A stretch of 64,000 nucleotides of DNA, taken from positions 6,956-70,955 of the forward strand of contig DAOUBG010000007.1 of assembly GCA_034432895.1 (NCBI GenBank), in the 5' to 3' direction. The position numbers were made by a program, and so were the translations under genes. Below the pieces are notes generated by a model. It saw only the letters and a program-made list of their open reading frames with translations. It was not told where the DNA came from and made no database searches. Positions 5,081-23,412 of this stretch are shown here, piece after piece. Numbering within the stretch: the stretch's first letter is position 1; each line of letters begins with the position of its first letter. This stretch comes from Anaerolineales bacterium (lineage in GTDB: Bacteria; Chloroflexota; Anaerolineae; Anaerolineales; Villigracilaceae).

Positions 5081-5194
<114 letters not shown>

Positions 5195-5206
5195 TTGCTG
5201 GGGGTA

Positions 5207-5573: not shown

Positions 5574-5624
5574 GGTCCACAGTCCACGCTCTACCGTCCG
5601 CGGTCCACCCTCTATCCTCCATGG
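5574..5624 (+). repeat. C/T-rich word repeat, locus A
   Basis: The sequence is ggtccacagtccacgctctaccgtccgcggtccaccctctatcctccatgg. It shares the words GTCCAC, CCGCGGTCC and GGTCCACC with loci at 12722, 39427 and 61433. Confidence 0.6.
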
Positions 5625-5628
5625 GCAG

Positions 5629-5657
5629 TGGTATAATCTGACTGACCAGTCAGTCAG
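5629..5657 (+). promoter_or_regulatory. extended -10 promoter plus putative TetR operator palindrome
   Basis: TGgTATAAT (5629-5637) is followed directly by the perfect inverted repeat CTGACTGAC-ca-GTCAGTCAG (5638-5657), 14 nt upstream of the tetR ATG. Confidence 0.5.
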
Positions 5658-5670
5658 CGCGAGGTGAACG

Positions 5671-6264
5671 ATGCATCTCTTTCCACCCTCTTCGGCGCGC
5701 AATCGCGTCTTACAAGCGGCATTGGAGGTCTTTGCTGAAAAAGGTTATCACGAGGCCACGATGGACGAGGTGGCCAAGGTGGCCCAGGTTTCCAAGGGGG
5801 CTTTGTATTTGCATTTTCCCAGCAAGCAAGAGCTGTTCGCTTCGCTGCTAGATGCGGCCACCGAGATGCTTGTGAATGCGATGCGCGAGGCAATGGCGCC
5901 GCACGCCAGTCACCGACGGCGGATGTATGCCGCTCTTCAGGCGGCTTTCAGCCTTTTTCAGCAATATCGCACCCTGGCGCGTTTGATCTTCCTGCGGGTG
6001 GGGACCAATCCGCTGCTGGAACGCAAAATTTTCGAGGCGCATCGCCGCATTAGTGATCTGATCGAAGAGCAAATCCGCGCGGCTTGCACTTCAGAAGAGA
6101 TAGTGCAGGAGAATGTGCCCTTCCTGGCGCTGATGTGGACCGGAGCGATCTACGAGGTCCTGGTCTGGTGGCTGTATCAGGAGAATCCACCCGATTTGGC
6201 CACTCTGGTCGATCCACTTTATACGGTGCTGCTCCGTACTTTGAACCTTTTGCCGGAGGCCTGA
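5671..6264 (+). CDS. TetR/AcrR family transcriptional regulator
   Basis: The N-terminal HTH region reads RNRVLQAALEVFAEKGYHEATMDEVAKVAQVSKGALYLHFPSKQELF. The stop overlaps the menF start (TGATG). Confidence 0.9.
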   Translation: MHLFPPSSARNRVLQAALEVFAEKGYHEATMDEVAKVAQVSKGALYLHFPSKQELFASLLDAATEMLVNAMREAMAPHASHRRRMYAALQAAFSLFQQYRTLARLIFLRVGTNPLLERKIFEAHRRISDLIEEQIRAACTSEEIVQENVPFLALMWTGAIYEVLVWWLYQENPPDLATLVDPLYTVLLRTLNLLPEA

Positions 6265-7907: not shown

Positions 7908-9643
7908 ACTTGCCGGCCAATCGCAATTTGCTTTGGGCACGGGTTTTCCTGGCCGAGTGGATCGGGCAGGGGCTGCAGGCAGCCTGTGTGGCTTCTGGAT
8001 CGCGTTCCACGCCATTGGCAATGACGCTGGCGGAATTTGCCGCTCAGGGGGCGCTACGTCTCTATGTGCATAACGATGAACGCTCCACGGCGTATTTCGC
8101 TTTGGGCTTGGCGCGGGCTTCCGGCCGGCCGGTAGCGGTACTCTGCACTTCGGGGACGGCGGCGGCCAATTTTTACCCGGCGGTGATCGAGGCGGAGGCT
8201 TCGGAGGTGCCGTTGCTGCTGCTGACGGCCGATCGCCCGCCGGAACTGCGCGCCAGCGGAGCGAATCAGACGATCGATCAGGTGAAGCTTTTCGGAGATG
8301 CGGTGCGCACCTATGTGGAGGTGCCGTTGCCGGAGGCCGATCCATCTCCTGCCGCTTTGCGCGCCTTGCGCGGACTGGCGGCGCGCACCTGGTTGACGGC
8401 GCTTGCGCCGTTGCCGGGGCCGGTTCAGGTGAATTTCCCTTTCCACAAACCCTTGGAGCCTATCCCGGTGAGCGGGGATGTGCCGGCCTGGCTGGAAGCC
8501 GATCACGCGCTCTTGCGCCCGCAGGCACAGACGCATTTCGCCCTCCAGGCACGTTTGGAGCCTGCCTCGCCGGAGGTGAATTGGTTTTTGGAACGCCTGG
8601 AAGGGGCAGAGCGCCCGGCGATCGTATGCGGGCCGCGCAGCGCGCCGGATGCGGCGTTCGGGCCCGCGGTGCTTCGCCTGGCGGAGCGATTCGGCGCGCC
8701 GATCTTCGCCGATGCCCTTTCCGGGGTGCGCTTTGGACAGGAACATCCGCTGCTTTTCGGCGCGTATGATGCCTGGATTGCCCGCCTGCCTCGGCCGGAT
8801 TTCGTCCTGCGCTTCGGCGATCTTCCGACTTCCACCGCGTTGATGGATTGGCTGGATGAGGAGGGGATCGAGCATGTATATGTGGGGCGCTACCCGCGTT
8901 GGCGCGATGACCGTTTTCGTACGACGCGCTTCCTTTTAGCCGACCCGACAGCACTCTTAAGCGTCTTAAACGCCGCGGCTTCGGGTTCGGCGCGTCCCGC
9001 AACGGCTTGGTCTGAATCCGCCCGCCGCTATGCTCAGGCGTTTGACCAGGCCCTGAGTGCGGCACGTACCCATCCCGATTGCGAAGCTTGTGTCCTCCCC
9101 ATCCTTTTTGATTTTTTACCACCCGGAGAGGCACTGATGGTCTCCAGTAGCCTGCCGGTGCGGCATTTGGATCAGTTCATCTCGCCGAGGGCGAAGGAGG
9201 TGCGTATCTTTGCCAACCGCGGCGCCAGCGGGATTGATGGGGTGCTTTCGACCGGGCTGGGGTTGGCGGCGCATTTTGGGCATGTGACAATGGTGCTGGG
9301 TGACCTGGCGTTCTATCACGATATGAACGGGTTGTTAGCGTTGCGGCGCTATGGGCTGAAGGCGACCATCCTGGTGATCCAGAACGATGGCGGGGGGATT
9401 TTCTATCGCCTGCCGGTGGCGCATTTCGAGCCACCGTTCCGTGAATTGTTCGTTACGCCCCATGGGTTGCGGTTTGCGCCGGTGGCCGAACTTTATGGGT
9501 TGACCTATCATTTTGTCGAAAATGTGCAAGAGTTGCGGCAGGTGTTGAGCGACCTGAATTGGGAGCAACCGAGTTTGATCGAGGTGCGCACCGATGCCCA
9601 GGCTTTTGAAAATTGGCGCAGGCAGTTTTTTGCCACCCTATAA
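7904..9643 (+). CDS. menD: 2-succinyl-5-enolpyruvyl-6-hydroxy-3-cyclohexene-1-carboxylate (SEPHCHC) synthase
   Basis: The protein reads MNLPANRNLLWARVFLAEW...VLCTSGTAAANFYPAVIEA...LLLTADRPPELR and carries the ThDP motif GDLAFYHDMNGL. ATG 7904 overlaps the menF stop (ATGA). Confidence 0.93.
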   Translation: MNLPANRNLLWARVFLAEWIGQGLQAACVASGSRSTPLAMTLAEFAAQGALRLYVHNDERSTAYFALGLARASGRPVAVLCTSGTAAANFYPAVIEAEASEVPLLLLTADRPPELRASGANQTIDQVKLFGDAVRTYVEVPLPEADPSPAALRALRGLAARTWLTALAPLPGPVQVNFPFHKPLEPIPVSGDVPAWLEADHALLRPQAQTHFALQARLEPASPEVNWFLERLEGAERPAIVCGPRSAPDAAFGPAVLRLAERFGAPIFADALSGVRFGQEHPLLFGAYDAWIARLPRPDFVLRFGDLPTSTALMDWLDEEGIEHVYVGRYPRWRDDRFRTTRFLLADPTALLSVLNAAASGSARPATAWSESARRYAQAFDQALSAARTHPDCEACVLPILFDFLPPGEALMVSSSLPVRHLDQFISPRAKEVRIFANRGASGIDGVLSTGLGLAAHFGHVTMVLGDLAFYHDMNGLLALRRYGLKATILVIQNDGGGIFYRLPVAHFEPPFRELFVTPHGLRFAPVAELYGLTYHFVENVQELRQVLSDLNWEQPSLIEVRTDAQAFENWRRQFFATL

Positions 9644-9658
9644 ATTTTTCGGGAGGAA

Positions 9659-10495
9659 GTGACCATGGTTGAATGGGTGAAAGTGAAAGACTATCAGGAT
9701 ATTACCTACCATAAGGCGGAAGGGATGGCGCGCATTGCCTTCAATCGCCCGGAAGTGCGCAATGCCTTCCGCCCGTTGACCATCCAGGAGATGATCGAGG
9801 CGTTTGAGAATGCTTGGGAGGATCCGCGCATCGGCGTGATCCTGCTGACGGGCAACGGCCCGGCGAGCGATGGCAAATATGCCTTTTGCTCCGGCGGCGA
9901 TCAGCGCGTGCGCGGGAGCGCCGGCTATGTCGGTGAGGATGGCATTCCCCGCCTGAACGTGCTCAAGTTGCAGCGCATCATCCGCACCATTCCCAAGCCG
10001 GTGATCGCGCTGGTGGCCGGCTATGCCATCGGCGGTGGGCATGTGCTCCACGTGATGTGCGATCTGACCATTGCTGCCGATAACGCCATCTTCGGCCAGA
10101 CCGGCCCCAAGGTGGGCAGTTTCGATGGTGGTTTTGGCGCTTCCTATTTGGGGCGCATTGTCGGGCAGAAGAAAGCGCGCGAAATCTGGTATCTCTGCCG
10201 GCAATATACGGCACAAGAGGCGCTGGAGATGGGATTGGTCAACAAAGTGGTGCCGGTGGAAGAGCTGGAAGCGGAAGGCATTCGCTGGGCCCAGGAAATC
10301 CTGGAGAAAAGCCCGCTGGCAATTCGCGCCTTGAAATCGGCCTTCAATGCCGAGCTGGATGGTCAGGCCGGCATTCAGGAGTTGGCCGGCAACGCCACGC
10401 TGCTCTTCTACATGACCGAAGAAGGCCAGGAGGGGCGCAACGCCTACCTGGAAAAGCGCAAACCGAACTTCCGCAAGTACCCTTGGTTGCCGTGA
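9659..10495 (+). CDS. menB: 1,4-dihydroxy-2-naphthoyl-CoA synthase
   Basis: This is a crotonase-fold protein: [23 protein letters not shown]...[11 protein letters not shown]...[15 protein letters not shown]...[18 protein letters not shown]. Confidence 0.95.
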
Positions 10496-11937
10496 ACTTC
10501 GATCCCTTCTTCCGTCCACGCCTGGAAACTTCCCCGAACCTGCCGGCGCTGGTGATGCGCACGCCGCAAGGTCGCCTTTTGCTGACCTGGGCGGAGCTGG
10601 AGGTCCGCGCTCAGGGGATGGCCGGTTGGCTCTGGGAACAGGGCATGCGGCCGGGGGAGCGGTTGGGTCTCTATCTGGAGAATTCCCTTGCGCTGATCGA
10701 GGTGGTGCTGGCGGCGGTGCGGTTGGGGCTACACCTGGTGATCTTCCATCGGCGCCTGAGCCCGGCCGAGCTGGAATGGCAGGTGGAGCAGATCGCGCCG
10801 TCGCTAGTGCTGCGCGATGATCTCGGCGGGAGCGGTCATTTGGCCGGTCGGCGCTGGGTGGGCTGGGAGGCTTCCGAGCGACCGGTGGTTCCTCCGGCCC
10901 GCTCACCGGTGAGCATTGCGGCGCGCTTCACGTTCTTCACCTCCGGCACCAGCGGATATCCGAAAGCCGTCACCCTGAGCCTGGAAAACTTGCAGGCGGC
11001 GGCCCAGGCCTCTTCCCAAAGGTTGGGCACCCAGATGGGCGAGCGCTGGTTGCTTTGCCTGCCACTCTATCATATCGGTGGCCTTTCCATCCTTTTCCGC
11101 GCCGCCTGGGATGGGATGACGGTCATCTTCCAGCCGCGCTTCGAGGCTGAGGAGACGGCGCGCCTGGTCAAGGAGGAAGGAGCCAATCTGATCTCTTTGG
11201 TGCCGACCATGCTTTATCGGCTACTGCCCTTTTGGGAGGCCGAGCCGCCCCCTCAGGCCCTACGCTTGGTTTTGCTCGGCGGGGCGGCGGCGGACCCGGA
11301 ACTCCTGCAGCGCGCCCTGAGCGTTGGCCTCCCCGTCGCTTTGACTTATGGCCTGACCGAAGCCGCTTCTCAGGTTTGCACGGCGCTGCCGCAAGAGGTG
11401 CTTCGCAAACCGGGCACGGTCGGCAGGCCTTTGCCAGGGGTGGAAGTGCAGGTGCGAGACGAGGCGGGCGCTCTCTGCCCGCCGGGGCAGGTTGGCGAGA
11501 TCTGCGTGCGCGGGCCGGCCGTGGCGCGTGGTTATGAAGGTCAACCGCCGTTTGCCGGGGGAGTGCTGCGCACCGGCGATCTGGGCTATTGGGATGAGGA
11601 AGGCGATCTCTGGGTGCTGGCACGCCGCAGCGATCTCATCCTGAGCGGTGGGGAAAATATCTATCCGGCAGAAGTGGAGCGTGTGCTTCAAAGGCATCCA
11701 GCCGTCCGGGAAGTGTGCGTCTTCGGTCTGCCACACGCGGAATGGGGCGAGCAGGTGGCCGCAGCAGTTGTGAAGGCGGCGGACGTGACGGCAGAAGAAT
11801 TGATCGCCTTCGCACGCCGATCGCTGGCCGGGTATAAAGTGCCGCGCAGGCTCTTCTTCTTACCGGAATTGCCACGAACGGCCTCGGGTAAGGTGATGCG
11901 TTCGCGCCTGGCCGAGCTCGTTCGCCTGGAGGCGTGA
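10483..11937 (+). CDS. menE: o-succinylbenzoate-CoA ligase
   Basis: It is an adenylate-forming enzyme ([38 protein letters not shown]) in a men context. The true start may be GTG 10492, which overlaps the menB stop (GTGA). Confidence 0.85.
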
Positions 11938-11941
11938 TCGA

Positions 11942-12721
11942 ATGCTTGTGTTGCGTTCGGACCTGGTTTTCGATCCTTCGACGTTGGTGCTGATGGCCGG
12001 GCCGTGCTCGGTCGAATCGTATGAGCAGACGCGGCAAGTGGCGCAGAGGATGGCGCAACTTGGGCTGCATGTTTTGCGCGGAGGAGCGTTCAAGCCACGC
12101 ACCTCGCCGCATACGTTTCAAGGGCTGGGTTTGGAGGGGCTGAAAATTCTCCGCACCGTGGCCGATGAATTCGGCTTGCTGGTGGTGACCGAGGCACTGG
12201 GCGTGGAGCATGTGCCACTGGTGGCCGAATATGCCGATATTTTGCAGATTGGCAGTCGCAATATGCAACACTTTCCGCTTCTTTGGGCGGCGGCGGAGAC
12301 GGGCAAGCCGATCCTGCTCAAGCGCGGCTTTATGTCCACGATTGACGAGTGGCTGGCGGCCGCCGAACATATCCGCGTACGCGGCAATGAGCAGATCCTC
12401 CTTTGCGAGCGCGGCATCCGCAGCTTCGATCCCTCCACGCGCCATGTGCTGGATGTAGTGGCGATCCCGTTGTTGCGCTCCCGCGGCGTCTCCTACCCGC
12501 TGATCGCCGATCCGAGCCACGCCACTGGGCACGCCGACCTGGTGCTGCCGGCTTCTCTAGCGGCGGTCGCGGCCGGGGCCGATGGTCTGCTCGTAGAAGT
12601 GCATCCGAATCCGCAAGCGGCGCTCTCTGATGGGGCGCAATCGCTGGCGCTGGCCGATTTCCCGGCCTATGTGGAATCCATACGCCGGCTAGCGCAGGCA
12701 CTGGGACGCAGGGTGATATAA
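11942..12721 (+). CDS. aroF: 3-deoxy-7-phosphoheptulonate (DAHP) synthase, short type I-beta
   Basis: The protein reads [13 protein letters not shown]...[19 protein letters not shown]...[10 protein letters not shown]...LKRG...DPSHATG...[10 protein letters not shown]. Confidence 0.9.
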
Positions 12722-12778
12722 TGGCGGTGGACGGTAAGGAGGACCGTGGGAGGATGATGGACCGTGGTAACTGTGGCA
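12722..12778 (-). repeat. C/T-rich word repeat, locus D
   Basis: The minus strand reads ccacagttaccacggtccatcatcctcccacggtcctccttaccgtccaccgccat, in the aroF-aroA spacer. Confidence 0.5.
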
Positions 12779-12827
12779 TAGTCACAAGGCTTTAGGGGTA
12801 TGGCCTGGGAGTAGATGGTGAGAGAAA

Positions 12828-14114
12828 ATGACGATCCAAATCCAACCTTCTTCTTTTCTATATGGTGAGACACAGGTTCCCGGCGATAAGTCCATTTCCC
12901 ATCGCGCGGTGATGTTTAGCGCGCTGGCGCCGGGGATACACCGGGTACGCGGCTGGTTGGAGGCCGGCGATACGTTGGCGACGCTGGAGGCCATGCAGGC
13001 TTTGGGGTTGCGCGTCACGCGCCAGGCCGATGAAATGCGCATTGAATCACAGGGACTGCAGTCGCCGAGTTCCGGCGTGCTGAATTGCCGCAATTCGGGG
13101 ACGACGATCCGTCTCTTGAGCGGCTTGCTGGCCGGGGCCGGTTTTGAGGTCACGCTGGATGGTTCGGAGCAGTTACGGCGGCGACCGATGCGCCGGGTCA
13201 CAGAGCCGTTGCGTCGCATGGGAGCGCGCCTGGAAGATAGCGACGGACGGGCGCCGTTGTTCCTTCGTCCGGCGAAGCTGATCGGGGCAGAACATCATCT
13301 GGCGATCGCCAGTGCGCAGGTGAAAAGCGCGTTGCTCTTGGCCGGCTGTTTTGCCGAAGGGGAGACGAGGGTCTACGAGCCGGCGCGCTCGCGCGATCAC
13401 ACCGAGCGCCTGTTGCAGAGCATGGGAGTTCCGCTCCGCGTCGCTGCGGATGGGCTTTCCTGTTCCGTGCAAAGGCCTTCTGCGCCGCTTCACCCTCTCG
13501 ATATCACTGTCCCTGGCGATTTTTCTTCTGCCGCTTTCCTGCTCGTCGCAGCGACTTTGACACCGCGTGCGGAGATCGTCATTCGGAACGTGAATCTAAA
13601 CCCAACCCGCATCGGCCTGCTGCATATTCTGCGGCGCATGGGCGCAGCGATCGAAGTGGAAGAGAGAGCTTTGGACGGTGAGCCCGTGGGGAACTTATAC
13701 GTGCGTTCGGCCGATCTCCAGGCGACGCAGGTCGGCGGCAGCGAAATTCCTTTGACCATTGACGAACTGCCGATCCTGGCGCTGGCGGCGACCCAAGCTC
13801 ACGGGGAGACGGTGATCCGTGATGCGGCCGAATTACGGGTCAAGGAAACCGATCGCATTGCCCAAGTTTGTCAGATTCTGCGTGCCTTCGGCGCCGAGGT
13901 CGAGGAATTGCCGGATGGCATGGTGATCCGCGGGCCGCGCTCGCTTTCTGGAGCGCATCTTTCCAGCCGTGGCGATCATCGCCTGGGAATGCTGATCGCC
14001 GTGGCCGGCCTGATCGCCAAAGGTGAGACGCGGCTGGAAGAGGAAGAATGCATCGCCGATTCGTTCCCCGGCTTTTTCCCTATCCTGGCCGCTTTAGGAG
14101 CAAAGGTTGGATGA
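12828..14114 (+). CDS. aroA: 3-phosphoshikimate 1-carboxyvinyltransferase (EPSP synthase)
   Basis: Motifs: VPGDKSISHRAVMFSALA, NSGTTIRLL, LRVKETDRI and GDHRLGM. Confidence 0.95.
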   Translation: MTIQIQPSSFLYGETQVPGDKSISHRAVMFSALAPGIHRVRGWLEAGDTLATLEAMQALGLRVTRQADEMRIESQGLQSPSSGVLNCRNSGTTIRLLSGLLAGAGFEVTLDGSEQLRRRPMRRVTEPLRRMGARLEDSDGRAPLFLRPAKLIGAEHHLAIASAQVKSALLLAGCFAEGETRVYEPARSRDHTERLLQSMGVPLRVAADGLSCSVQRPSAPLHPLDITVPGDFSSAAFLLVAATLTPRAEIVIRNVNLNPTRIGLLHILRRMGAAIEVEERALDGEPVGNLYVRSADLQATQVGGSEIPLTIDELPILALAATQAHGETVIRDAAELRVKETDRIAQVCQILRAFGAEVEELPDGMVIRGPRSLSGAHLSSRGDHRLGMLIAVAGLIAKGETRLEEEECIADSFPGFFPILAALGAKVG

Positions 14115-14911
14115 GCGAACGGGTGGGCCTGATCGGATGGCCGTTAGGGCATAGTCTTTCGCCATTTCTCCACAATCGTGCTTTTGTCGCCTGCGGCCTG
14201 GATTGGCATTATGAGCTGCTGCCGGTCCAGGCGGAGGCGCTGGAAGCGCGCCTGGGCGGGTGGCTAGCCGAAGGTTACCGTGGCTTTAATGTCACCATCC
14301 CGCACAAGCGACGTGTGCTTGAGTTGCCGTTTGTTTCCGAACGCTCGCCGGAAGTAGAGCGTTTGCAAGCAGCGAATACGCTGGTGCGCCTGGAGGATGG
14401 TTCATTGCGTGCCGAAAACACCGATTGGTTGGGCTTTCTGCAGGATTTGCAAGCACACGGGATTGATGGGCATAGGGGGAGCTGTCTCATCCTAGGAACA
14501 GGCGGCTCGGCACAAGCAGTCGCTTTTGCGCTGGAGCGCTTGGGCGCCACGGCGATCGCGTTCGTCAGCCGAGCGCCCTCTCATCCTGCCCATCTTTCCT
14601 GGGAAACCTTGCGGCAACACCGAGATTGGCTGGAGCACGTCTCTCTGGTGGTGAATTGCACGCCGATCGGGATGTATCCGCAGATCGCCGCTTCTCCCTG
14701 GCCGCCGGATTTGCCCTTGCCGCCTCATGCGGTGGTTTACGATTTGGTCTACAACCCGCGCCGCACCCGTCTGATCGAACAGGCCGAGCAGGCCGGCCTG
14801 CGCGCCCTAGGTGGGATTGGCATGCTTTTGCGTCAGGCGGCTTTGAGCTTCACACTCTGGACCGGCCGAACGTTCGATTTCCTTTCGTTGCTGGCGGAGT
14901 TGCCTTTGTAG
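14111..14911 (+). CDS. aroE: shikimate dehydrogenase
   Basis: The protein reads MSERVGLIGWPLGHSLSPFLHNRAF...GFNVTIPHK...NTDWLGF...GTGGSAQA. ATG 14111 overlaps the aroA stop (ATGA). Confidence 0.9.
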   Translation: MSERVGLIGWPLGHSLSPFLHNRAFVACGLDWHYELLPVQAEALEARLGGWLAEGYRGFNVTIPHKRRVLELPFVSERSPEVERLQAANTLVRLEDGSLRAENTDWLGFLQDLQAHGIDGHRGSCLILGTGGSAQAVAFALERLGATAIAFVSRAPSHPAHLSWETLRQHRDWLEHVSLVVNCTPIGMYPQIAASPWPPDLPLPPHAVVYDLVYNPRRTRLIEQAEQAGLRALGGIGMLLRQAALSFTLWTGRTFDFLSLLAELPL

Positions 14912-14965
14912 AACAAGCATCGGCTTTGTTCTACGGGTGTTTGTTCAGGAGGAGCATCGTTCCGT

Positions 14966-16147
14966 ATGCCGTTACGTTTTCTGACTGCCGGTGAATCGCA
15001 TGGGCCGGCGTTGGTTGCCATCCTGGAGGGAATGGTGGCCGGTCTGCCTTTGAATATCGAGGAACTGGATCGGGAATTGGAGCGCCGTCAACGTGGGTTT
15101 GGGCGCGGCGGGCGCATGTCCATGGAGAAGGATCAGGTGGAGGTTCTGGCCGGGGTGATGGCCGGTCGGACCACCGGAGCGCCGATTGCCATGCTCATCC
15201 GCAATCGGGATGCCGAAAACTGGCGCGGGAATCCGATCGCTCCTTTCGTTGTGCCGCGGCCGGGCCATGCCGATCTGAGCGGGGCGCTCAAATATCGTCA
15301 CCGTGACCTGCGTCTGAGCCTGGAACGCGCCAGTGCCCGCGAAACAGCGGCGCGGGTGGCGATCGGAGCCGTTTGTAAGCAGTTTTTAGCGCAGTTCGGC
15401 ATCTTCGTCGGTGGGTATGTCTGCCAGATCGGGCGCGTGCGCACCGATTTGCCGCTCTCGCCGGACCCACAGGTCTACCTTGCACGCTTTGAACAGGCGG
15501 AAACAAACGATGTGCGCTGTCCCGAATTGCAAGCCGCCCAGGAGATGCGTGCCCATATTCAGGAAGCGATCCGCGCCCGCGATACGTTGGGCGGTGTCAT
15601 CGAAGTCTTTGCCGTTGGCCTGCCGCCGGGGCTGGGGAGCTACGCGCATGCCGATCGGCGTTTGGATGGGCGCTTGTTGGGCGCGCTGGCTTCGATCCCG
15701 GCGGTCAAAGGAGCCGAGATCGGGGATGCGTTTGCTCAGGCGGGCGAATTCGGCACGCGCGTCCACGATGCTATCCTGCGCGACGAGCAGGGAAACCTAT
15801 ACCGTCCGACGAACCGCGCCGGTGGCCTGGAAGGTGGCGTGACGAACGGCCTGCCGCTGGTGGTGCGCGCCGCGATGAAGCCGATCGCCACCACGCTGAC
15901 CCCGCAGCGGAGCGTCAACCTGGTGAGCGGAAAAGCCACGGAGACGGTCTACGAGCGTTCGGATATTTGCCCACTGCCGCGTGCCGTGGTGGTGGCAGAA
16001 GCGGTGGTCGCCTTCGTCCTGGCCGATACGTTGTTGGAGAAGCTCGGCGGCGATAGCCTGGAGGAAATTCGCCCGCGCTTTGAGTCTTTGCCACGCCCGC
16101 GCTTAGGCGATCTGCCGATGGATGGCGAAGCGCATGTCTTTTGGTAG
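14966..16147 (+). CDS. aroC: chorismate synthase
   Basis: The protein reads MPLRFLTAGESHGPALVAILEGMVAG...RPGHADL...GGLEGGVTNG. An AGGAGG lies 13 nt upstream. Confidence 0.95.
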   Translation: MPLRFLTAGESHGPALVAILEGMVAGLPLNIEELDRELERRQRGFGRGGRMSMEKDQVEVLAGVMAGRTTGAPIAMLIRNRDAENWRGNPIAPFVVPRPGHADLSGALKYRHRDLRLSLERASARETAARVAIGAVCKQFLAQFGIFVGGYVCQIGRVRTDLPLSPDPQVYLARFEQAETNDVRCPELQAAQEMRAHIQEAIRARDTLGGVIEVFAVGLPPGLGSYAHADRRLDGRLLGALASIPAVKGAEIGDAFAQAGEFGTRVHDAILRDEQGNLYRPTNRAGGLEGGVTNGLPLVVRAAMKPIATTLTPQRSVNLVSGKATETVYERSDICPLPRAVVVAEAVVAFVLADTLLEKLGGDSLEEIRPRFESLPRPRLGDLPMDGEAHVFW

Positions 16148-16149
16148 GA

Positions 16150-16158
16150 TGGTATAAT
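16150..16158 (+). promoter_or_regulatory. possible extended -10 box for the following operon
   Basis: TGgTATAAT lies immediately after the aroC stop and has the same form as the tetR promoter. I saw no clear -35 element. Confidence 0.35.
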
Positions 16159-16211
16159 TGCCATAATGTGTACAAATTTCACAAACAAAGGCATATCTGG
16201 GAGATTCTCCT

Positions 16212-17453
16212 ATGATCCAACTATGCTATAGCACCTTTGGAATGACCAAGCTGGATTTCATCGAGGCCATCGAGGCCGTCGATCGTGCCGGTTACGCCGG
16301 GGTGGAACTGGCCTTCCACCGCGATCAGTTCAACGTTTTCAACGTGACCGATGAGTACCTGGAGGCGATCCGCAAACGCTTTGAGACCTTGCGGGTGCGT
16401 CCGGCCTGTGTGGCGACTGCCTCCCATTTCTTCACGCCTTCGCGGCCTCACGAGCCTTCGCTGATGAGCCCGGATCTGGCCGGTCGCAAGCGCCGCATTG
16501 ACCTGATCCGCCGCGGCATTCACGTGGCTCGGAAGCTGGGGGTGCCGTTTGTCTCCTTCGGTAGCGGCTTCATTCGAGAAGAGCACCTTCTGCACCCGGA
16601 AGTCAATCCGCATGAGTTGCTGGTGGATAGCATTCATCAATGCCTGCGTGCGCTACGGGATGACGATGATATTACGCTTTTGATCGAACCGGAACCGGGT
16701 ATGTACATCGAAACGGTGGAACAGGCCATTCGCCTGGTGGAGGATGTCAACTCGCCGCGCTTCCGTTTGCATATTGACCTGTGTCACATGTATTGCTCGG
16801 AAAAGGATTTTATTGTCCAGCTGGGGCGCGTGGCACCGTATACCCGCTACCTGCACGTTTCCGATGCACGGCAGGGCTATAACCTGAAGATTTTGGCCTG
16901 GTCGCCCGATCTGGATTTAGACATGGATTTTGCCTCGTATCTGATCTATTTCCCGGATACGGCGGAATATCTGCTGGCGGATCGACAACACCCGATCTAC
17001 TTCTATGACGAATTCAAGCCCGGAGCGGCGCGGCGGAAGCAAATTGACGACCTTCTCGGCCGGGCCGGTGTGACGGCCTCGCTGCGCTACGTGGACTATA
17101 CCTCGCTATATGCCGGCGCTTCGCCTTTCGATGACGAAATCTTCACCTACCTGATTTCGGTGCCGCGCCTGAGCTTCGATGTGCTGGAGCGCGCCCGCCC
17201 GATCCTGCTCTATTTGCGCCGCCCGATCCACGATGGTAAACCCTTGGTCGATCGCATGGTGGCCAATACGCTGACCGGGATCGTCCACTTCCACGAAATC
17301 CCCGGTGAAGGCACGTTTGATTTTGCCGCGGCCTTTAAGGCGTTGACCGATCACGGCTATTCCGGCTATGCTTCGGTGGAGCTCTATCATCACGTGGAAT
17401 CGTGGGAGAAGGCGCTTCACGATAGTTACCGCCATCTTTCGCAGTTCGTTTGA
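16212..17453 (+). CDS. large xylose-isomerase-like TIM-barrel protein (sugar-phosphate isomerase/epimerase family; EboE-like size and layout)
   Basis: The 413-aa protein has AGYAGVELAF, LLIEPEPGMY, HIDLCHM, LHVSDAR and ASVELYHH, which are the metal-ligand blocks of the AP-endonuclease-2 / xylose-isomerase fold. A roughly 100-aa insertion separates the HVSD and HFHE blocks. Confidence 0.7.
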   Translation: MIQLCYSTFGMTKLDFIEAIEAVDRAGYAGVELAFHRDQFNVFNVTDEYLEAIRKRFETLRVRPACVATASHFFTPSRPHEPSLMSPDLAGRKRRIDLIRRGIHVARKLGVPFVSFGSGFIREEHLLHPEVNPHELLVDSIHQCLRALRDDDDITLLIEPEPGMYIETVEQAIRLVEDVNSPRFRLHIDLCHMYCSEKDFIVQLGRVAPYTRYLHVSDARQGYNLKILAWSPDLDLDMDFASYLIYFPDTAEYLLADRQHPIYFYDEFKPGAARRKQIDDLLGRAGVTASLRYVDYTSLYAGASPFDDEIFTYLISVPRLSFDVLERARPILLYLRRPIHDGKPLVDRMVANTLTGIVHFHEIPGEGTFDFAAAFKALTDHGYSGYASVELYHHVESWEKALHDSYRHLSQFV

Positions 17454-17474
17454 GATTTCCATCTGGAGGTATTT

Positions 17475-17954
17475 ATGGTTGATGTAAAAGCATTAGGCTG
17501 GGACCCTGCTACCGTCGGTGAACTCGATCACCGGTTGTTGAAAGCGCCCCACGTCAAGTTGCGCTCCTATAATGAGGGGCCGAACGGGGATGTTGTCTAT
17601 TGCATTGATTTGCGCATCAATCGCCCGAATGAAGAGTTCCTCTCATCCACAGAAATGCATTCCTTTGAGCACTTTCTGCTCTATGGTTTCCAGAAGTACA
17701 TGCCTCAGAATTTTCTTTCAGTAGGCTTGATGGGCTGTCAGACCGGCTTTTATCTCGTCCTGTATAACGAAGGCCGGGCGGAACGCATTTTCGCTACGTA
17801 TGAGCAAATTTTGAAGGACATTCTGACCGCTACTGAAGTGCCCTATGCCAATATTGCTCAATGCGGGAATTACCGCAATCACAGCCTGGAAGTGGCGCAG
17901 AATCTGGCAAGGAGGGTGCTGGCGGCGCGGGAACGCTGGGCAGAGATCGTATGA
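17475..17954 (+). CDS. luxS: S-ribosylhomocysteine lyase
   Basis: The protein aligns along its whole length with my recollection of B. subtilis LuxS. Matching blocks are ELDHRLLKAPHV, the metal ligands HSFEH and MGCQTGFY, and ANIAQCGNYRNHSL. A GGAGG RBS is present. Confidence 0.85.
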   Translation: MVDVKALGWDPATVGELDHRLLKAPHVKLRSYNEGPNGDVVYCIDLRINRPNEEFLSSTEMHSFEHFLLYGFQKYMPQNFLSVGLMGCQTGFYLVLYNEGRAERIFATYEQILKDILTATEVPYANIAQCGNYRNHSLEVAQNLARRVLAARERWAEIV

Positions 17955-19105
17955 ACACCTTGGGAATGTACAGTTACCGTCTAAGTTATCAGCACCTGAT
18001 CGAGTATGAGATCATTCACGCTCCGAATTTGTTCGCGCCGGATAACCCGGCGTTGCTTTCCTCCGGGCGCGGACGCGGCAGCCGGCGCTTTGTGGTTGTG
18101 GATGAGAACGTCTACGGCTATTACGGAGAGGCGATCTGGACTTATTTTGCGTTTCACGGCATCGAAGCCCGCATTGTGCCTCTGGCCGCCGGTGAAGAGC
18201 ATAAGACCCTGGAGAGCTATATCTTTCTGGCGCGTGAGCTGGATGCTTTCCCCATTCATCGGCGCGATGAACCGATTATCGCCATCGGTGGAGGGGTGCT
18301 CACCGATCTGGTCGGTTTTTTGGCCAGCACCTATCGCCGTGGCCTGCCCCACATCAAGGTGCCGACGACGTTGATGGGTTACGTGGATGCTTCGATTGGA
18401 ATTAAGACCGGCTTTAACTTTGATGGCAACAAAAACCGCCTGGGCTCATTCTATGCGCCTCAGAAAGTGTTGCTGGATAAAACCTTTTTCCGCACCCTTT
18501 CACGCCGTCACCTATTGAACGGTATTTGTGAGATCATCAAGCTGGCTGTGATCAAGGATGCGGAACTGTTTGAGATGCTGGAGCAATGGGGGGCGAGCAG
18601 CGTGGAACGAGCTTTCCAGGATCAAGAGAGCGATCGCATCCTGGATCGCGCCATCCGCGGCATGATCGAAGAGTTGGAGCCCAATCTCTTTGAAGAAGAA
18701 CTGGCGCGTAAGGTGGATTTCGGTCACACCTTTAGCTACGGTCTGGAAGCGCGCCATGAGGGACGGCTCTATCATGGGGAAGCCGTTCTGTTGGACATTC
18801 TCCTTTCGGTGTTGATTGCTCGTTCTCGCCGTCTGCTGAGCGAAAGTGAGAGCGAACGTGTTTTCCGCCTTACCGAAACTCTGGGCATTCACTTGGATAC
18901 CGCGGTGCTAGATGCGGAAACGCTTTGGGAATCGCTGCGCGAACGTACCTATCATCGCAATGGGTTGCAGCGTGTGCCGATGCCGGCCGGGATCGGCCGA
19001 TGCATTTTTCTGAATGATATTACCCGCTGCGAAGTGGAACGTGCGACTCAAGAACTCGAAACTCGCCTCTGGAAGATGAACCATGTCCTCGTTTATCAAC
19101 GCTGA
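17951..19105 (+). CDS. 3-dehydroquinate-synthase-family sugar-phosphate cyclase (non-canonical, EboD/EEVS-like)
   Basis: The protein has AIGGGVLTDLVGFLASTYRRGLPHIKVPTTLMGYVDASIGIKTGFNFDGNKNRLGSFYAP...CEIIKLAV...DFGHTFSYGLE...LYHGEAV. It deviates from AroB at GGKT to GIKT and GHAIE to SYGLE. ATG 17951 overlaps the luxS stop (ATGA). Confidence 0.75.
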   Translation: MNTLGMYSYRLSYQHLIEYEIIHAPNLFAPDNPALLSSGRGRGSRRFVVVDENVYGYYGEAIWTYFAFHGIEARIVPLAAGEEHKTLESYIFLARELDAFPIHRRDEPIIAIGGGVLTDLVGFLASTYRRGLPHIKVPTTLMGYVDASIGIKTGFNFDGNKNRLGSFYAPQKVLLDKTFFRTLSRRHLLNGICEIIKLAVIKDAELFEMLEQWGASSVERAFQDQESDRILDRAIRGMIEELEPNLFEEELARKVDFGHTFSYGLEARHEGRLYHGEAVLLDILLSVLIARSRRLLSESESERVFRLTETLGIHLDTAVLDAETLWESLRERTYHRNGLQRVPMPAGIGRCIFLNDITRCEVERATQELETRLWKMNHVLVYQR

Positions 19106-19787
19106 TCCTCAGGAAATTCAAAAATTCGATGCGGTTGCCCAATGGTGGGATCCGCGCGGCGAGATGGGCACATTGCACGTGATCAACCCGTTGCGGGTGC
19201 AGTTCATCCTTGAAAAAGTTGAGGTAGATCATCCGCGTGTGCTGGATGTTGGCTGTGGTGGCGGCATTTTGAGCGAAGCGCTGGCACGTCGCGGCGCTCA
19301 GGTGACGGGCATCGATCTTTCACAAGCGGCAATCGCAGTGGCGCAACGTCACGCTCAGGAACAGGGATTAGAAGTAGAATATCGCTATCAGAGTGCCGAG
19401 GCCCTGGCCGAAGCAATGCCAGAGTCGTTTGATATCGTCACTTGCCTGGAGATGCTAGAGCACGTCCCGCAGCCGCAAGCGGTGGTGGCGGCCTGTGCAC
19501 GCGCCGTCAAACCTGGCGGACACGTCATCTTTTCAACGATCAATCGCACCCCGAAGGCTTTTCTGTTCGTGATTATCGGCGGCGAATACATTCTGCGCCT
19601 GTTGCGCCCGGGAACTCATGACTACCGCAAATTCATTCGCCCTGCTGAGCTCCGCGCTTGGGCCGAGGCAAATGGCCTACGCTTCGTACGATTGGCCAGT
19701 TTGCTGTATAATCCTTTCACCCGTCGTTTTCGGATGGCAGAAGGTGTAGAGGATAATAATTACTTCATGCATTTCGTTAAACCCTGA
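19083..19787 (+). CDS. ubiG: UbiG-like SAM-dependent O-methyltransferase
   Basis: The protein is collinear with my recollection of E. coli UbiG: FDAVAQWWDPRGEMGTLHVINPLRVQFI, VLDVGCGGGILSEALARRGAQVTGIDL, DIVTCLEMLEHVPQPQAVV, KPGGHVIFSTINRT, GTHDYRKFIRPAEL. It overlaps the upstream gene by 23 nt. Confidence 0.8.
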   Translation: MSSFINADPQEIQKFDAVAQWWDPRGEMGTLHVINPLRVQFILEKVEVDHPRVLDVGCGGGILSEALARRGAQVTGIDLSQAAIAVAQRHAQEQGLEVEYRYQSAEALAEAMPESFDIVTCLEMLEHVPQPQAVVAACARAVKPGGHVIFSTINRTPKAFLFVIIGGEYILRLLRPGTHDYRKFIRPAELRAWAEANGLRFVRLASLLYNPFTRRFRMAEGVEDNNYFMHFVKP

Positions 19788-19798
19788 GGGAGGATGCG

Positions 19799-20701
19799 AT
19801 GCAGCGCTTCTTTGCTCTTTCGCGCACAACACACGGCATCTTGGATATTGCCGCTCCCGGTTTTGTCGCTTTGCTCTGGTTAGGTGATTTTCCGAGTTGG
19901 AGCACCTTGCTCCTTTCCCTTTTCACGGCCTTCGCTGCCTATACTGCGATTTATGCGTTGAATGACCTAGTCGGCGTGATGACCGATAAAGAGAAGGTGG
20001 CCGGTGGGCTGAAAGAGGGATATTCGGTGGAGGCTTCGGCGTTTCGTTACCCGCTGGCACAAGGCGTGCTCGATTATCGGAGTGGCGCGCTTTGGTTCTT
20101 GGGATGGTTCCTCGTGGCCCTGATCGGGTGTTATTGGCTCAACCCAGTTATCGTGTGGATCCTGTTCGCTGCTGCCGTTCTAGAGGTTATTTACTGCTTG
20201 TTGCTAAAGGTGACCTATCTGCGCACCCTGGTGAGCGGTTTGGTGAAGTCAAGTGGCCCGATCGCGGCGATCTTCGTCGTGCAGCCAAATCCGGATTGGC
20301 GTTGGTTGCTGCTGACACTAGCTTGGGTGTTTTTCTGGGAGATCGGCGGGCAGAATATCCCGGCCGATTGGAACGACGTAGAAGAGGACCAACGGGTAGG
20401 TGCAAAAACGATCATCATCCGTTTTGGCCCGCGCGTGGCCGGGATTATCGCTTTTCTTTCCTTGAGCGTAACCATGGTGCTAAGTCTTTTCCTACCACGC
20501 ATTTCCCCGCTTCCTCTAGGATGGCTTTACCTCGTGGGGACTATCCTGATCGGCTTTTTCCTGCTTTTGTGCCCGGTCTACCGTCTGTATCGCTTGCAGG
20601 ATGGACGACTGGCGGCACGCTTGTTCGATCATGCCAGCTACTACCCGCTGGCGCAGATGATATGGATTGCCGTTTTTGTGCTCTGGTATAAGTTCTTTTA
20701 G
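19799..20701 (+). CDS. UbiA-superfamily prenyltransferase (polytopic membrane protein)
   Basis: The protein has about 8-9 hydrophobic segments. The first Asp-rich motif is atypical (YALNDLVGVMTD, i.e. NDxxGxxxD). The second motif is canonical (NDVEEDQRVGAKT). Confidence 0.8.
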   Translation: MQRFFALSRTTHGILDIAAPGFVALLWLGDFPSWSTLLLSLFTAFAAYTAIYALNDLVGVMTDKEKVAGGLKEGYSVEASAFRYPLAQGVLDYRSGALWFLGWFLVALIGCYWLNPVIVWILFAAAVLEVIYCLLLKVTYLRTLVSGLVKSSGPIAAIFVVQPNPDWRWLLLTLAWVFFWEIGGQNIPADWNDVEEDQRVGAKTIIIRFGPRVAGIIAFLSLSVTMVLSLFLPRISPLPLGWLYLVGTILIGFFLLLCPVYRLYRLQDGRLAARLFDHASYYPLAQMIWIAVFVLWYKFF

Positions 20702-20709
20702 GAGGTTCT

Positions 20710-21177
20710 ATGGCTCCGATCGCTGGACAAACAGCGCCCGATTTTGCCCTTCCGGATGAAAACGGAACGATCCGCCGACTTTCGGATTTCCGCGGGCGAT
20801 ATGTCGTGCTGTATTTTTATCCCAAAGATGATACGCCCGGTTGTACAACAGAGGCCTGCGAGTTTCGTGATGTCTATACGGAGTATGAACAGGCCGGGGT
20901 AGTGATCTTAGGCGTGAGCCCGGATTCGCCGCGTTCCCATGCTCGTTTCAAGCAAAAGCATCACCTTCCCTTTCCGTTGCTTGCAGATGAAGACCATGCC
21001 GTTTGTCAACAATACGGAGTATGGGGACGCAAGAAGTTTATGGGCCGGGAATATGACGGTGTCTTGCGCACCACCTTTTTAATCGATCCGCAAGGGACGA
21101 TCGTGCGCGTCTTTGAAAACGTGAAGCCGGCAGGGCACAGTCGAGAAGTGCTGGCGGCTCTTCCCCAAAGCGATTAA
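20710..21177 (+). CDS. bcp: thioredoxin-dependent peroxiredoxin Bcp
   Basis: The protein reads GQTAPDFALPDENG...VVLYFYPKDDTPGCTTEACEFRD. Confidence 0.9.
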   Translation: MAPIAGQTAPDFALPDENGTIRRLSDFRGRYVVLYFYPKDDTPGCTTEACEFRDVYTEYEQAGVVILGVSPDSPRSHARFKQKHHLPFPLLADEDHAVCQQYGVWGRKKFMGREYDGVLRTTFLIDPQGTIVRVFENVKPAGHSREVLAALPQSD

Positions 21178-21197
21178 CCATCCTTTGCGCGGCGCAG

Positions 21198-22772
21198 ATG
21201 CCGTTCTCTTTTTCGGGCACAATGGAAAATAGAGCGTTCTCGTTACTGGGCGCGTTGATCGAGGCAGAAAGTGAAGAAGCCATCATACGTGCTGTTATGC
21301 GAGCCGGGCAAGAGATCCTCGGCGCCGAAGGATGTGCTTTTATCCCCTTTGCCGAATGGAAGGTTAACGAGAATTATCTGGTCGAAGGGCGAGTGCCTCA
21401 ATCATTCGATGCCTCTCCTTGGGAGGAACGTCTGAAGCTCCCGGCGACTCGCCAGGCCTGTAAGCACTGTACCGCTCGGGTTTCAGATCGCTCGTGTTTG
21501 CTGTTCGCGGATAGCATCATCGAATCGAATTACGTCTTTTGCCTGCCGTTGTACCATCCTGAGGAGAAGGAGATAGGGGTAGTTAGTTTTTTCCTGTATC
21601 ATCCGCCGTTCTTGACTCCTGAGGTTCGAGAAAAGTTGAACGCTATACAGCAATTAGCGGCCAAGGCGCTGGCACGGGTGCAGCGAAGCGAACGCGAAAT
21701 GGAGGTCTTACGGCAAGTCCTGCGCTCTGTGGACGCTCAGCTAGACCCAAAAGAGTGGACAGAGCCACTTTTGGGTCGTCTGTTAGAACTGAGCGGCGCG
21801 GATTGCGCGGCCTTGTGGGATCAGACGGGACATTTGGTCTCGTTTCCGCCTCAGATTACTTTACCGCCCGCGGAACAAATCAAACACTGGTGGAAAATGC
21901 TAAAGGAACAGGAGCACGCTCGGCTGTTTACCCTGGCAGATCCTTTTGTTTCCGGTCTCCATCCTCACTGGGTGGTATTACCTTTACGTTGGAAAGGCGC
22001 GACCGAAGGCTTGTTGTTATTGGGGCATCGTGCTCCTTTGGGCCTTTCACGGCGCTTGCGGCAGATTTTGCAAGTGGCCGCGTTGCAATGGGCGCTACTT
22101 TTGCATTACCAGCATATGCTGGAAAATCTGGAATATCAGACCATCTTGGAGGAGCGAACGCGCCTGGCGCGCGAAATCCATGATGGGATTGCTCAGACTC
22201 TGGCTTTTCTCCAAGTGGAGATCGGACGATTGCAACTTTATCTGAACGAGGGCCGATTGGATGCACTCTCTCAAGGATTGCAGGCGTTTCGGCGTACGTT
22301 GAACGACGCTTTCCTTGAGCTGCGTCTGGCGATCGATCAATTGCGTCATTCGCCCCACGGAGATTGGTCTGCGTGGTTGCGAGAAACGGCGGAGGGCTTT
22401 AGTCGTCAAAGTCGCATTGAAACGCGTTGTCAGATTGCTTCGCTACCTGGGCTTCCCTCCCATATACAGGCGCAATTGAGTCGTATTGTGCAAGAGGCGC
22501 TGACCAATGTCTGGAAACATGCACAAGCTCACTCGGTCACAATACGTTGTCATCGGCAAGGATGTTACCTGCAATTGGAAATTACCGACGATGGACGCGG
22601 CTTTGATACGGAAAGGGAATTCTCATCCCAACATGGTTTGCAGGGCATGCGTGAGCGTGCGGTCGCAGTAGGGGCCGATCTCCGTATTTTTTCTGCACCC
22701 GGGGCTGGAACGACCGTCCAGCTGTCCCTGGACTTGAAGAAGATAATCGAAATCTGCGATGGAAACGGATAA
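21198..22772 (+). CDS. cytoplasmic sensor histidine kinase (GAF-like N-terminus, HisKA_3 + HATPase)
   Basis: It has the H-box EERTRLAREIHDGIAQTL and ATPase blocks QEALTNVWKHA, DDGRGF and GLQGMRERA. No TM segment is visible. Confidence 0.85.
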   Translation: MPFSFSGTMENRAFSLLGALIEAESEEAIIRAVMRAGQEILGAEGCAFIPFAEWKVNENYLVEGRVPQSFDASPWEERLKLPATRQACKHCTARVSDRSCLLFADSIIESNYVFCLPLYHPEEKEIGVVSFFLYHPPFLTPEVREKLNAIQQLAAKALARVQRSEREMEVLRQVLRSVDAQLDPKEWTEPLLGRLLELSGADCAALWDQTGHLVSFPPQITLPPAEQIKHWWKMLKEQEHARLFTLADPFVSGLHPHWVVLPLRWKGATEGLLLLGHRAPLGLSRRLRQILQVAALQWALLLHYQHMLENLEYQTILEERTRLAREIHDGIAQTLAFLQVEIGRLQLYLNEGRLDALSQGLQAFRRTLNDAFLELRLAIDQLRHSPHGDWSAWLRETAEGFSRQSRIETRCQIASLPGLPSHIQAQLSRIVQEALTNVWKHAQAHSVTIRCHRQGCYLQLEITDDGRGFDTEREFSSQHGLQGMRERAVAVGADLRIFSAPGAGTTVQLSLDLKKIIEICDGNG

Positions 22773-23412
22773 GCCGATCTCGGTATTCGTCGTAGATGAT
22801 CATTCCTTGTTCCGCCGAGGGTTGATCGCTCTTCTGCGCGAAATGCCGGAGTTTCGCGTTCTCGGCGAGGCCGGAGATGCAGGGACGGCCTTCGGGCGAA
22901 TTCTGCAAACCCATCCCCAGGTCGTTTTGCTCGATATACATATGCCATCGTCGAGCGGGCTTGAGTTATTGGGACAACTACGTCGTGCGGGGTTTGGCGG
23001 AAAGATCTTGATCCTGACCGTTTCCCAGGATGAAAGGGATGTTTTAAAGGCAATTGCCGATGGGGCTGATGGTTATCTGCTCAAAAATATTGAGCCGGAG
23101 AATTTGCGCCGGGTGCTTTTGGATGTGGTTCGAGGGCAATCTGTTCTATCTTCGGAAGTGACGCAGCATGTGTTGGAGCTGGTGCGGCAAAAGGATGTGC
23201 CGCGTCCCTCGCAGTTGACACCACGGGAAATGGAAGTATTGCAGGCTTTGTGCAGTGGAAAAAGCACGGCCCAGATTGCGGCCGAGCTCTTCCTTTCCGA
23301 AAATACCGTCAAGACGCACATTCAGCACATTTTTGAAAAAATGGGGGTACGGAATCGTACGGAGGCCGTGATCCGGGCGATCGAATTGGGATGGACCTCG
23401 CCCAAAGTGTGA
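22759..23412 (+). CDS. NarL/LuxR-family response regulator
   Basis: It has a REC domain (VFVVDDHSLFRRGL...LLDIHMP) and a LuxR HTH (LTPREMEVLQALCSGKSTAQIAAELFLSENTVKTHIQHIFEKMGV). It overlaps the kinase gene by 14 nt. Confidence 0.92.
   Translation: METDKPISVFVVDDHSLFRRGLIALLREMPEFRVLGEAGDAGTAFGRILQTHPQVVLLDIHMPSSSGLELLGQLRRAGFGGKILILTVSQDERDVLKAIADGADGYLLKNIEPENLRRVLLDVVRGQSVLSSEVTQHVLELVRQKDVPRPSQLTPREMEVLQALCSGKSTAQIAAELFLSENTVKTHIQHIFEKMGVRNRTEAVIRAIELGWTSPKV

Follow-up and report, generated by a model that had tools for sequence, protein, structure and literature searches.

Five co-directional genes at positions 16212-20701 of a 64,000-nucleotide stretch of DNA from an Anaerolineales bacterium (hereafter the window, meaning that whole stretch) encode a TIM-barrel protein, a LuxS-like protein, a sugar-phosphate cyclase, a UbiG methyltransferase and a UbiA-like prenyltransferase, in that order. 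The reading of this cassette that we favor, to which we give somewhat less than even confidence, is that it would make a cyclitol-derived, prenylated and O-methylated membrane lipid of the quinol type. That the end product is ubiquinol itself is less likely, though the chance is substantial, and we give a similar chance to the cassette being a complete third route to ubiquinol, one of four to five enzymes that would need neither O2 nor chorismate. Gene identities were taken from the open reading frames (ORFs) at these window positions and from Pfam and NCBIfam profile searches. These searches upheld three gene calls of an initial annotation made from the sequence: a sugar-phosphate cyclase other than canonical AroB, a UbiG-like methyltransferase and, as the last gene, a UbiA-family prenyltransferase other than MenA.

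Judged by its sequence, the cyclase is an EEVS-type (EEVS, the synthase for 2-epi-5-epi-valiolone) sugar-phosphate cyclase of the 3-dehydroquinate synthase (DHQS) superfamily. Against Protein Data Bank sequences it scored 310 bits with ValA (4p53) and 253 bits with desmethyl-4-deoxygadusol synthase (DDGS, 5tpr), relative to at most 144 bits with true DHQ synthases; with the C6 cyclase BtrC (DOIS) it scored 93 bits. On the aroB equivalog model it reached 222 bits, under the cut-off of 305. Two active-site positions, the residue before the GH(S/T) metal ligand and a residue in the C-terminal loop, are ones that we take, on the basis of the ValA and DDGS structures, to discriminate EEVS from DDGS. 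At these positions the cassette cyclase has the Asp (before GHT) and the His (in "YHRNG") of ValA; the corresponding residues are Ala and Thr in DDGS, and Asn and Lys in DHQS. The Asp is conserved in 71 of 71 cassette cyclases and the His in 70 of the 71. One nearby position, Tyr, is unlike both references, in which it is Pro. We infer that the enzyme converts sedoheptulose 7-phosphate to 2-epi-5-epi-valiolone; its sequence is also compatible with its being a 2-epi-valiolone synthase, which it may be.

The TIM-barrel protein scored 128 bits on PF01261 (gathering score 31) and reached no named NCBIfam equivalog. Its AlphaFold model (pLDDT 78) contains a subdomain insertion some 135 residues long (roughly 222-355), and its best Foldseek matches were UlaE, ketose 3-epimerases and IolI, each with a probability of 1.00, together with keto-glucal hydratase, YcjR and the dehydroshikimate dehydratase AsbF. 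A metal-stabilised enolate beside a carbonyl is used by every one of these enzymes. Candidate metal or acid-base residues (E159, E161, D189, H192, H215, D218 and E390) are invariant in our alignment A1, and the protein retains about 70% identity across Anaerolineales and 65-68% to Proteobacteria. By analogy with its structural neighbors, we propose that it acts as an epimerase or dehydratase on a keto-cyclitol.

The LuxS-like protein shares with LuxS (S-ribosylhomocysteinase, the autoinducer-2 (AI-2) synthase) the PF02664 fold family, on which it scored 113 bits, as well as the HxxEH/Cys metal site and the catalytic Glu57 and Cys84, which are present in all 76 cassette copies; indeed H54, E57, H58, C84, C126, H11 and R39 are invariant in 76/76. 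It differs from LuxS in falling under every equivalog cut-off (the best NCBIfam LuxS equivalog gave 124 bits versus 208), in position 78, which is never Asp (0/76), in the loss of R65 from most copies (retained in 8/76), and in always adjoining, or being fused to, the TIM barrel and the cyclase. In the Bacillus subtilis LuxS, Asp78 is reported to bind substrate along with Glu57 and Arg65 (PMC2656534). When we searched the LuxS-like protein against 1.8 billion representative proteins, at least six clusters at 50% identity were found in which a LuxS domain is fused to the C-terminus of a cassette-type TIM barrel (fusion proteins P0126, P0131, P0135, P0139, P0154, P0182, P0271 and P0272). Such single polypeptides are encoded at L082 (3313-5082) and L084 (10001-11659), and in those fusion loci that were examined the fusion gene is directly followed by the genes for the cyclase and UbiA. 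These natural fusions show that the TIM-barrel and LuxS-fold enzymes act together, and they argue against housekeeping work by the latter and against its use in general S-adenosylhomocysteine (SAH) recycling. The cassette protein is probably a LuxS paralogue that does not cleave S-ribosylhomocysteine, which makes the "genuine LuxS" of the initial annotation doubtful given the sub-threshold scores, the missing Asp78 and the fusions, and we propose by analogy that it serves as an isomerase or beta-eliminase in ring aromatisation. A Legionellales metagenome-assembled genome (MAG) carries a TIM-LuxS fusion that is annotated simply as "S-ribosylhomocysteine lyase", and since the LuxS-fold gene bears that name in public records, AI-2 quorum sensing may be wrongly inferred in these organisms.

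On the UbiG equivalog TIGR01983 the methyltransferase scored 258 bits versus a cut-off of 103, and it matched Escherichia coli UbiG (4kdc) with 245 bits, residues 6-230 to 17-242, being 51% identical to it (115/224 residues) over its full length. The methyltransferases of distant cassette variants are also UbiG equivalogs (267-275 bits). By these matches the enzyme is a true UbiG orthologue, an S-adenosylmethionine (SAM)-dependent O-methyltransferase with polyprenyl-quinol intermediates as its presumed substrates, and a UbiG-like substrate is favored because it is 51% identical to E. coli UbiG while the UbiG proteins of two cassette clades are only about 60% identical to each other. The prenyltransferase, as its profile matches indicate, is a divergent membrane enzyme of the UbiA superfamily: it scored 93 bits on PF01040 (cut-off 34), whereas its best NCBIfam matches were 4-hydroxybenzoate-type or "ubiA_other" models, all far below cut-off (TIGR01474, 40 bits versus 275; TIGR01475, 63 versus 181), and MenA gave 16 bits. 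It carries the motifs NDLxGxxxD and DxxED, with Gly in place of the middle Asp of the first, and no match in the Protein Data Bank was found by sequence or profile search.

In a conservation scan with one genome per species, at least 565 genomes encode a relative of the TIM barrel, and we surveyed gene order in the best 80 loci among them. The TIM-LuxS-cyclase-UbiG-UbiA order is kept in about 65 of the 80, most of the others being contigs that end inside the cassette, and because the order recurs to this extent the arrangement is far from chance; its conservation is very wide, contrary to one of the refuting outcomes named by the initial annotation. The hosts are mostly Anaerolineales but also include Xanthomonadales (Dokdonella, Thermomonas, Lysobacter, Xanthomonas), Burkholderiales (Ottowia and Castellaniella, among them the cultured isolate Castellaniella sp. 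FW104-7C03) and Legionellales. The window proteins are 97-98% identical to those of two MAG contigs, all five proteins are 55-68% identical between phyla, and neighbor-joining trees place the proteobacterial copies in a single clade in the case of three proteins out of the five. All-against-all clustering of flanking ORFs from 81 loci gave no sixth conserved gene, only lineage-specific synteny (mnmA, an amidohydrolase, peptide ABC permeases), and Pfam scans of the flanks of the Castellaniella, Thermomonas and atypical loci gave unrelated genes. With no conserved sixth gene, and with flanks that are not related from one lineage to the next, the five genes are on this comparative evidence a self-contained, mobile but slowly evolving unit. 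No orthologue was found among the plasmids of PLSDB, in which the best match was 30% identical. A full-text literature search gave no functional description of the five-gene set, in agreement with the initial annotation, and recovered only an uncommented table of gene neighbors (PMC8756737).

How could such a set of enzymes produce a quinol ring? The ring would come not from chorismate but from the pentose-phosphate intermediate sedoheptulose 7-phosphate, which the EEVS-type cyclase would convert to 2-epi-5-epi-valiolone (C7H12O6), a ring with a carbonyl at C1, hydroxyls at C2-C4, both a hydroxyl and a CH2OH at C5, and a CH2 at C6. The TIM-barrel and LuxS-fold enzymes, members of families that work via metal-stabilised enolates and beta-elimination, would then remove two waters and tautomerise the ring in a redox-neutral conversion to 5-methylbenzene-1,2,3,4-tetrol (C7H8O4), which is the unprenylated and unmethylated ring of ubiquinol. 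Next, the UbiA-like enzyme would prenylate the sole unsubstituted ring carbon and, lastly, UbiG, an orthologue by score but with a presumed substrate, would methylate two adjacent hydroxyls; in the canonical pathway UbiG performs both O-methylations. By atom bookkeeping, valiolone and the ubiquinol ring correspond atom for atom in their pattern of carbons and oxygens, so that ubiquinol or a close methoxy-methyl-polyprenyl-benzoquinol would be the simplest end product. The "quinol-like lipid" first suggested from the sequence was a fair guess. Ubiquinone is not known to be made from anything other than an aromatic acid derived from chorismate or tyrosine, and the known route requires three ring hydroxylations, performed with O2 or by the UbiU/V system. 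The proposed route would dispense with an O2-dependent hydroxylase, a decarboxylase and a C-methyltransferase, none of which is in the cassette. Because the genes form a colinear set without a conserved sixth member, five functions seem to be enough, in agreement with the stoichiometry of the proposed route: a cyclase, two catalysts of elimination, a prenyltransferase and a bifunctional O-methyltransferase. Quinone and isoprenoid genes in the vicinity lend support, namely men and shikimate genes in the window and, at L001, mevalonate-pathway genes after which the cassette comes.

The nearest chemical precedent is BE-40644 of Actinoplanes sp. A40644, an isoprenoid quinone whose ring derives from 2-epi-5-epi-valiolone, the EEVS product undergoing dehydration before an enzyme of the UbiA family prenylates it (PMC5133447; bioRxiv 10.1101/2020.02.06.932020). 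Compared by description, the two systems differ: BE-40644 is an actinomycete antibiotic, strain-specific and with its farnesyl chain cyclised, and the literature examined reports neither a LuxS-fold enzyme nor a UbiG orthologue for it. With the canonical ubiquinone pathway (UbiC, A, D/X, I, G, H, E and F, and the O2-independent UbiT/U/V) the cassette shares UbiG, the UbiA superfamily and a predicted ring substitution equal to the ubiquinol pattern. It differs in its predicted ring source, in which all the oxygens would already be in place, in a prenyltransferase far below the cut-offs for 4-hydroxybenzoate prenyltransferases, and in its gene content: no chorismate lyase, decarboxylase, hydroxylase, UbiE or UbiU/V was found in the cassette or flanks of any locus, a statement about the loci and not about whole genomes.

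Neighboring genes and upstream sites in several lineages point to anaerobic respiration. In the L088 locus (1-17272) the cassette has molybdenum-cofactor biosynthesis genes on one side and, on the other, those for a CRP/FNR-family regulator, NnrS, HemN, a peptidyl-prolyl isomerase and NarI, and a perfect palindrome, TTGACCTAGGTCAA (TTGAC-N4-GTCAA), lies at 7909-7922, 79-92 nt upstream of its first gene, that of the TIM barrel. The L084 locus has a quinol-type nitric oxide reductase gene near its cassette variant. In L085/L086 there is a perfect TTGAT-N4-ATCAA at -78, and in Thermomonas an FNR-like box is found about 29 nt upstream of a TATAAAAT. Textbook copies of the FNR-type box are those of L066, L085/L086 and L088. 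In the Chloroflexota SURF MAG 42, NirS is beside the cassette (PMC8756737).

Several observations weigh against our interpretation. We derived the proposed chemistry from family membership and from atom bookkeeping. The prenyltransferase diverges too far for its acceptor to be inferred, is very far from the 4-hydroxybenzoate prenyltransferases, and belongs to a superfamily whose members also prenylate non-aromatic acceptors. The loss of Asp78 from the LuxS-like protein suggests an altered function without deciding the matter, since Asp78 is missing from certain other LuxS subgroups too (they have Tyr, Leu or Asn there). Cultured Anaerolineae have, as far as we are aware, menaquinones only, and for Proteobacteria the route would be redundant with the canonical way of making ubiquinone. 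UbiG is absent from the cluster in L015 and also in L084, where the fusion, the cyclase and UbiA are preceded by genes (all within 4712-13684) for FabH-like, two FabA-like, ketosynthase, acyl carrier protein, phosphopantetheinyl transferase and AhbD/NirJ-like radical-SAM proteins, so that the locus resembles a specialised lipid cluster; a multicopper oxidase and a qNOR-type (quinol-type) nitric oxide (NO) reductase are encoded nearby. Lastly, the enrichment of FNR-type boxes is weak overall: TTGA-N6-TCAA occurs upstream in 5/86 loci (4 organisms) versus a background of 1.3%, another FNR-box scan gave 4/19 loci versus 7%, and the window's own cassette has no such box upstream.

In the main rival explanation, which we regard as improbable but deserving of serious consideration, the product would be a C7 cyclitol that is prenylated and O-methylated without being aromatic: a carbasugar or gadusol-like enol anchored in the membrane, akin to the product long proposed for ebo. 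The TIM-barrel and LuxS-like enzymes would then do no more than epimerise the ring or dehydrate it once, UbiA would act on the cyclitol through an ether or C-prenyl bond, and an enol or hydroxyl would be capped by the methyltransferase. An EEVS-type cyclase with an O-methyltransferase is indeed the logic of gadusol and the mycosporines, whose EEVS- or DDGS-dependent pathways likewise start from a sedoheptulose 7-phosphate cyclase and proceed to O-methylation (PMC12904256). The nearest folds of the TIM barrel being epimerases, the acceptor range of the UbiA family together with the distance of the cassette enzyme from 4-hydroxybenzoate prenyltransferases, and the specialised lipid character of the L084 variant all fit this explanation too. 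Nevertheless, a full-length UbiG orthologue, and not a methyltransferase of the type of gadusol or mycosporine-like amino acids, is present in every variant tested, and the cassette further differs from those pathways in its membrane prenyltransferase and in having no ATP-grasp or nonribosomal peptide synthetase-like gene. Moreover, two elimination-type enzymes, sometimes fused, exceed the needs of epimerisation, and the very slow divergence, together with a TIM family that is present in at least 565 species genomes, has the look of core metabolism and not of a strain-specific metabolite. The ebo product itself, too, is now proposed to arise via an aromatised, prenylated intermediate, the cyclitol being aromatised before prenylation by EboC (bioRxiv 10.64898/2026.05.21.724671).

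Could the cassette instead be a diverged ebo cluster with the eboA-F class of product, as the initial annotation proposed in describing a remodelled, ebo-type operon? The resemblance is real in that ebo, known from cyanobacteria, Bacteroidota and eustigmatophyte plastids, also brings together in one operon a sugar-phosphate cyclase from the DHQ-synthase superfamily, a TIM barrel that is xylose-isomerase-like and about 400 aa long, and a UbiA enzyme (PMC5133447), and in that its product is likewise taken to be a cyclitol-derived prenylated compound (PMC5133447; bioRxiv 10.64898/2026.05.21.724671). We nonetheless consider membership very unlikely. On the NCBIfam model NF035939 (TIM_EboE) the TIM barrel scored 15.6 bits versus a cut-off of 250, over residues 147-192, about 45 residues only, and no EboC model was among the 16 NCBIfam matches of the prenyltransferase at E <= 10, although the presence of an EboC model in the library was not separately checked. 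EboD, compared here by description, cyclises mannose 6-phosphate to a C6 cyclitol, whereas the cassette cyclase is EEVS-type and groups with ValA and DDGS and not with such a C6 cyclase (PMC12904256). In place of eboA, eboB and eboF, the cassette has the LuxS-fold enzyme and UbiG; those three genes occur in none of 89 loci, as had been noted for the window, and no eboA (or eboG), TatD-like eboB or phosphodiesterase-like eboF was recurrent in 81 loci or the Pfam-annotated neighborhoods. Hence the gene calls and operon-like packing of the ebo proposal stood, while its assignments to EboC, EboD and EboE were not supported, membership being rejected on the hidden Markov model scores and the closest match of the cyclase being ValA. 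Because that orthology is unsupported and eboA, eboB and eboF are absent, the likeness to ebo, as far as these comparisons go, is one of logic (cyclase, TIM barrel and UbiA) and not of family. By analogy, the cassette works like ebo and BE-40644, through a cyclase, ring tailoring and UbiA-family prenylation, without being a member of ebo.

Least credible of all is that the five genes are neighbors by accident and serve ordinary pathways as AroB, an SAH-recycling LuxS and a standard quinone UbiG and UbiA: DAHP (3-deoxy-D-arabino-heptulosonate 7-phosphate) synthase, aroA, aroE and aroC genes are directly upstream and no aroB (nor aroK, aroD/Q, menA, menC or menH) was seen among the annotated window ORFs, but in nearly every other locus the five genes travel together and aro genes do not accompany them, other lineages have LuxS fused to the TIM barrel, the cyclase is under the aroB cut-off with EEVS residues where DHQS binds the DAHP carboxylate, and G+C is 0.59-0.65 in aroA-aroC versus 0.54-0.56 in the cassette. 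The candidacy of the cyclase as the AroB of the upstream aro genes was rejected on its score, its active-site residues and its conservation within the cassette elsewhere.

If the cassette were indeed a sugar-derived route to ubiquinol, what would follow? The inference of quinone content and redox lifestyle from genomes would change, as might reconstructions of how high-potential quinones evolved, and a high-potential quinone would be expected in Chloroflexota, spread by transfer between phyla and used in nitrate or NO respiration. Among the carriers of the cassette are denitrifying Proteobacteria and the Anaerolineales, a group abundant in wastewater and sediments. Even with a different prenylated lipid as its product, the cassette is a very widespread, strongly conserved and uncharacterised pathway.

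The layout of the cassette (Table 1) was confirmed by the ORFs and their coordinates, and direct reading of the sequence also bore out the junctions and the extended -10 box described initially. The first two genes are separated by a 21-nt gap, the LuxS-like and cyclase genes share an ATGA (17951-17954), the cyclase and UbiG genes overlap by 23 nt (ATG at 19083, TGA at 19103-19105), and the UbiA-like gene comes after a gap of 11 nt in which there is a GGAGG ribosome-binding site. Mechanical ORF calling starts the cyclase at 17861, within the LuxS-like gene; we place its start at the ATG at 17951 because homologues have 371-392 aa and because of the ValA alignment.

Table 1. The five cassette genes and the predicted promoter element upstream of them (window coordinates).
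Feature	Position	Strand	Description
Extended -10 box TGGTATAAT	16150-16158	+	3 bases past the aroC stop (16145-16147)
TIM-barrel gene	16212-17453	+	413 aa; PF01261
LuxS-like gene	17475-17954	+	159 aa; PF02664
Cyclase gene	17951-19105	+	384 aa when counted from the ATG of the shared ATGA; N and C domains of DHQ_synthase
UbiG gene	19083-19787	+	234 aa
UbiA-like gene	19799-20701	+	300 aa; PF01040

The box TGGTATAAT is likely the cassette's promoter, as predicted from its sequence and position. The pattern TGNTATAAT has three exact copies in the window versus 0.57 expected, all on the + strand, and by ORF coordinates these are just upstream of menF (5629-5637), aroA (12714-12722) and the cassette, which suggests three promoters inside a long co-directional run. 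A two-hexamer promoter scan did not list the cassette site, and an Rfam scan found no RNA family inside or adjoining the cassette.

The run in question comprises menF, menD, menB, menE, DAHP synthase, aroA, aroE and aroC (6084-16147, +), with the cassette directly at its end. G+C is 0.55 in menF and 0.53-0.56 in the cassette together with all downstream DNA, and because the aroA-aroC block differs from the cassette in this respect the men/aro block and the cassette are probably separate units in evolutionary terms. In L068, L079 and L081, which are Xanthomonadales-type loci, aroC adjoins the cassette divergently, and in the window co-directionally; the adjacency could be a coincidence or a link to chorismate metabolism. 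Immediately past the cassette, after 8 nt, a Prx/BCP peroxiredoxin gene begins (20710-21177, +), and the region that it opens (20710-23412, +) continues with genes for a GAF-HisKA_3 histidine kinase, with NarQ/NarX as its best matches, and a LuxR/NarL-type response regulator. The layout of this trio resembles that of DosS/DosR-type hypoxia or NO sensors, and the trio is retained only in the closest relatives (L002-L004).

Among the other loci, the Legionellales MAG (L082/L083) has the TIM-LuxS fusion followed by the cyclase, UbiG, UbiA and a major facilitator superfamily transporter, L085/L086 has a more distant, unfused cassette beside hydrogenase genes, and in L089 an AhbD/NirJ-like radical-SAM gene overlaps the start of the TIM gene. 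Phosphoribosyltransferase genes near two cassettes were considered as a shared partner and rejected, since they are not homologous beyond the phosphoribosyl pyrophosphate motif. Elsewhere in the window, a SAM riboswitch (Rfam RF00162, 85 bits; 5079-5196, -) heads the gene of MetH, a B12-dependent methionine synthase of 1197 aa (1479-5072, -), and a thiamine pyrophosphate riboswitch (RF00059, 72.5 bits) is located at 56857-56964 (+). There is also a very long ORF of 2450 aa at 48294-55646 (+). At 32767-34298 (-), a gene for F420-0:gamma-glutamyl ligase adjoins one of the F420-dependent NADP oxidoreductase family, and this gene pair suggests that coenzyme F420 is in use in this Anaerolineales genome.

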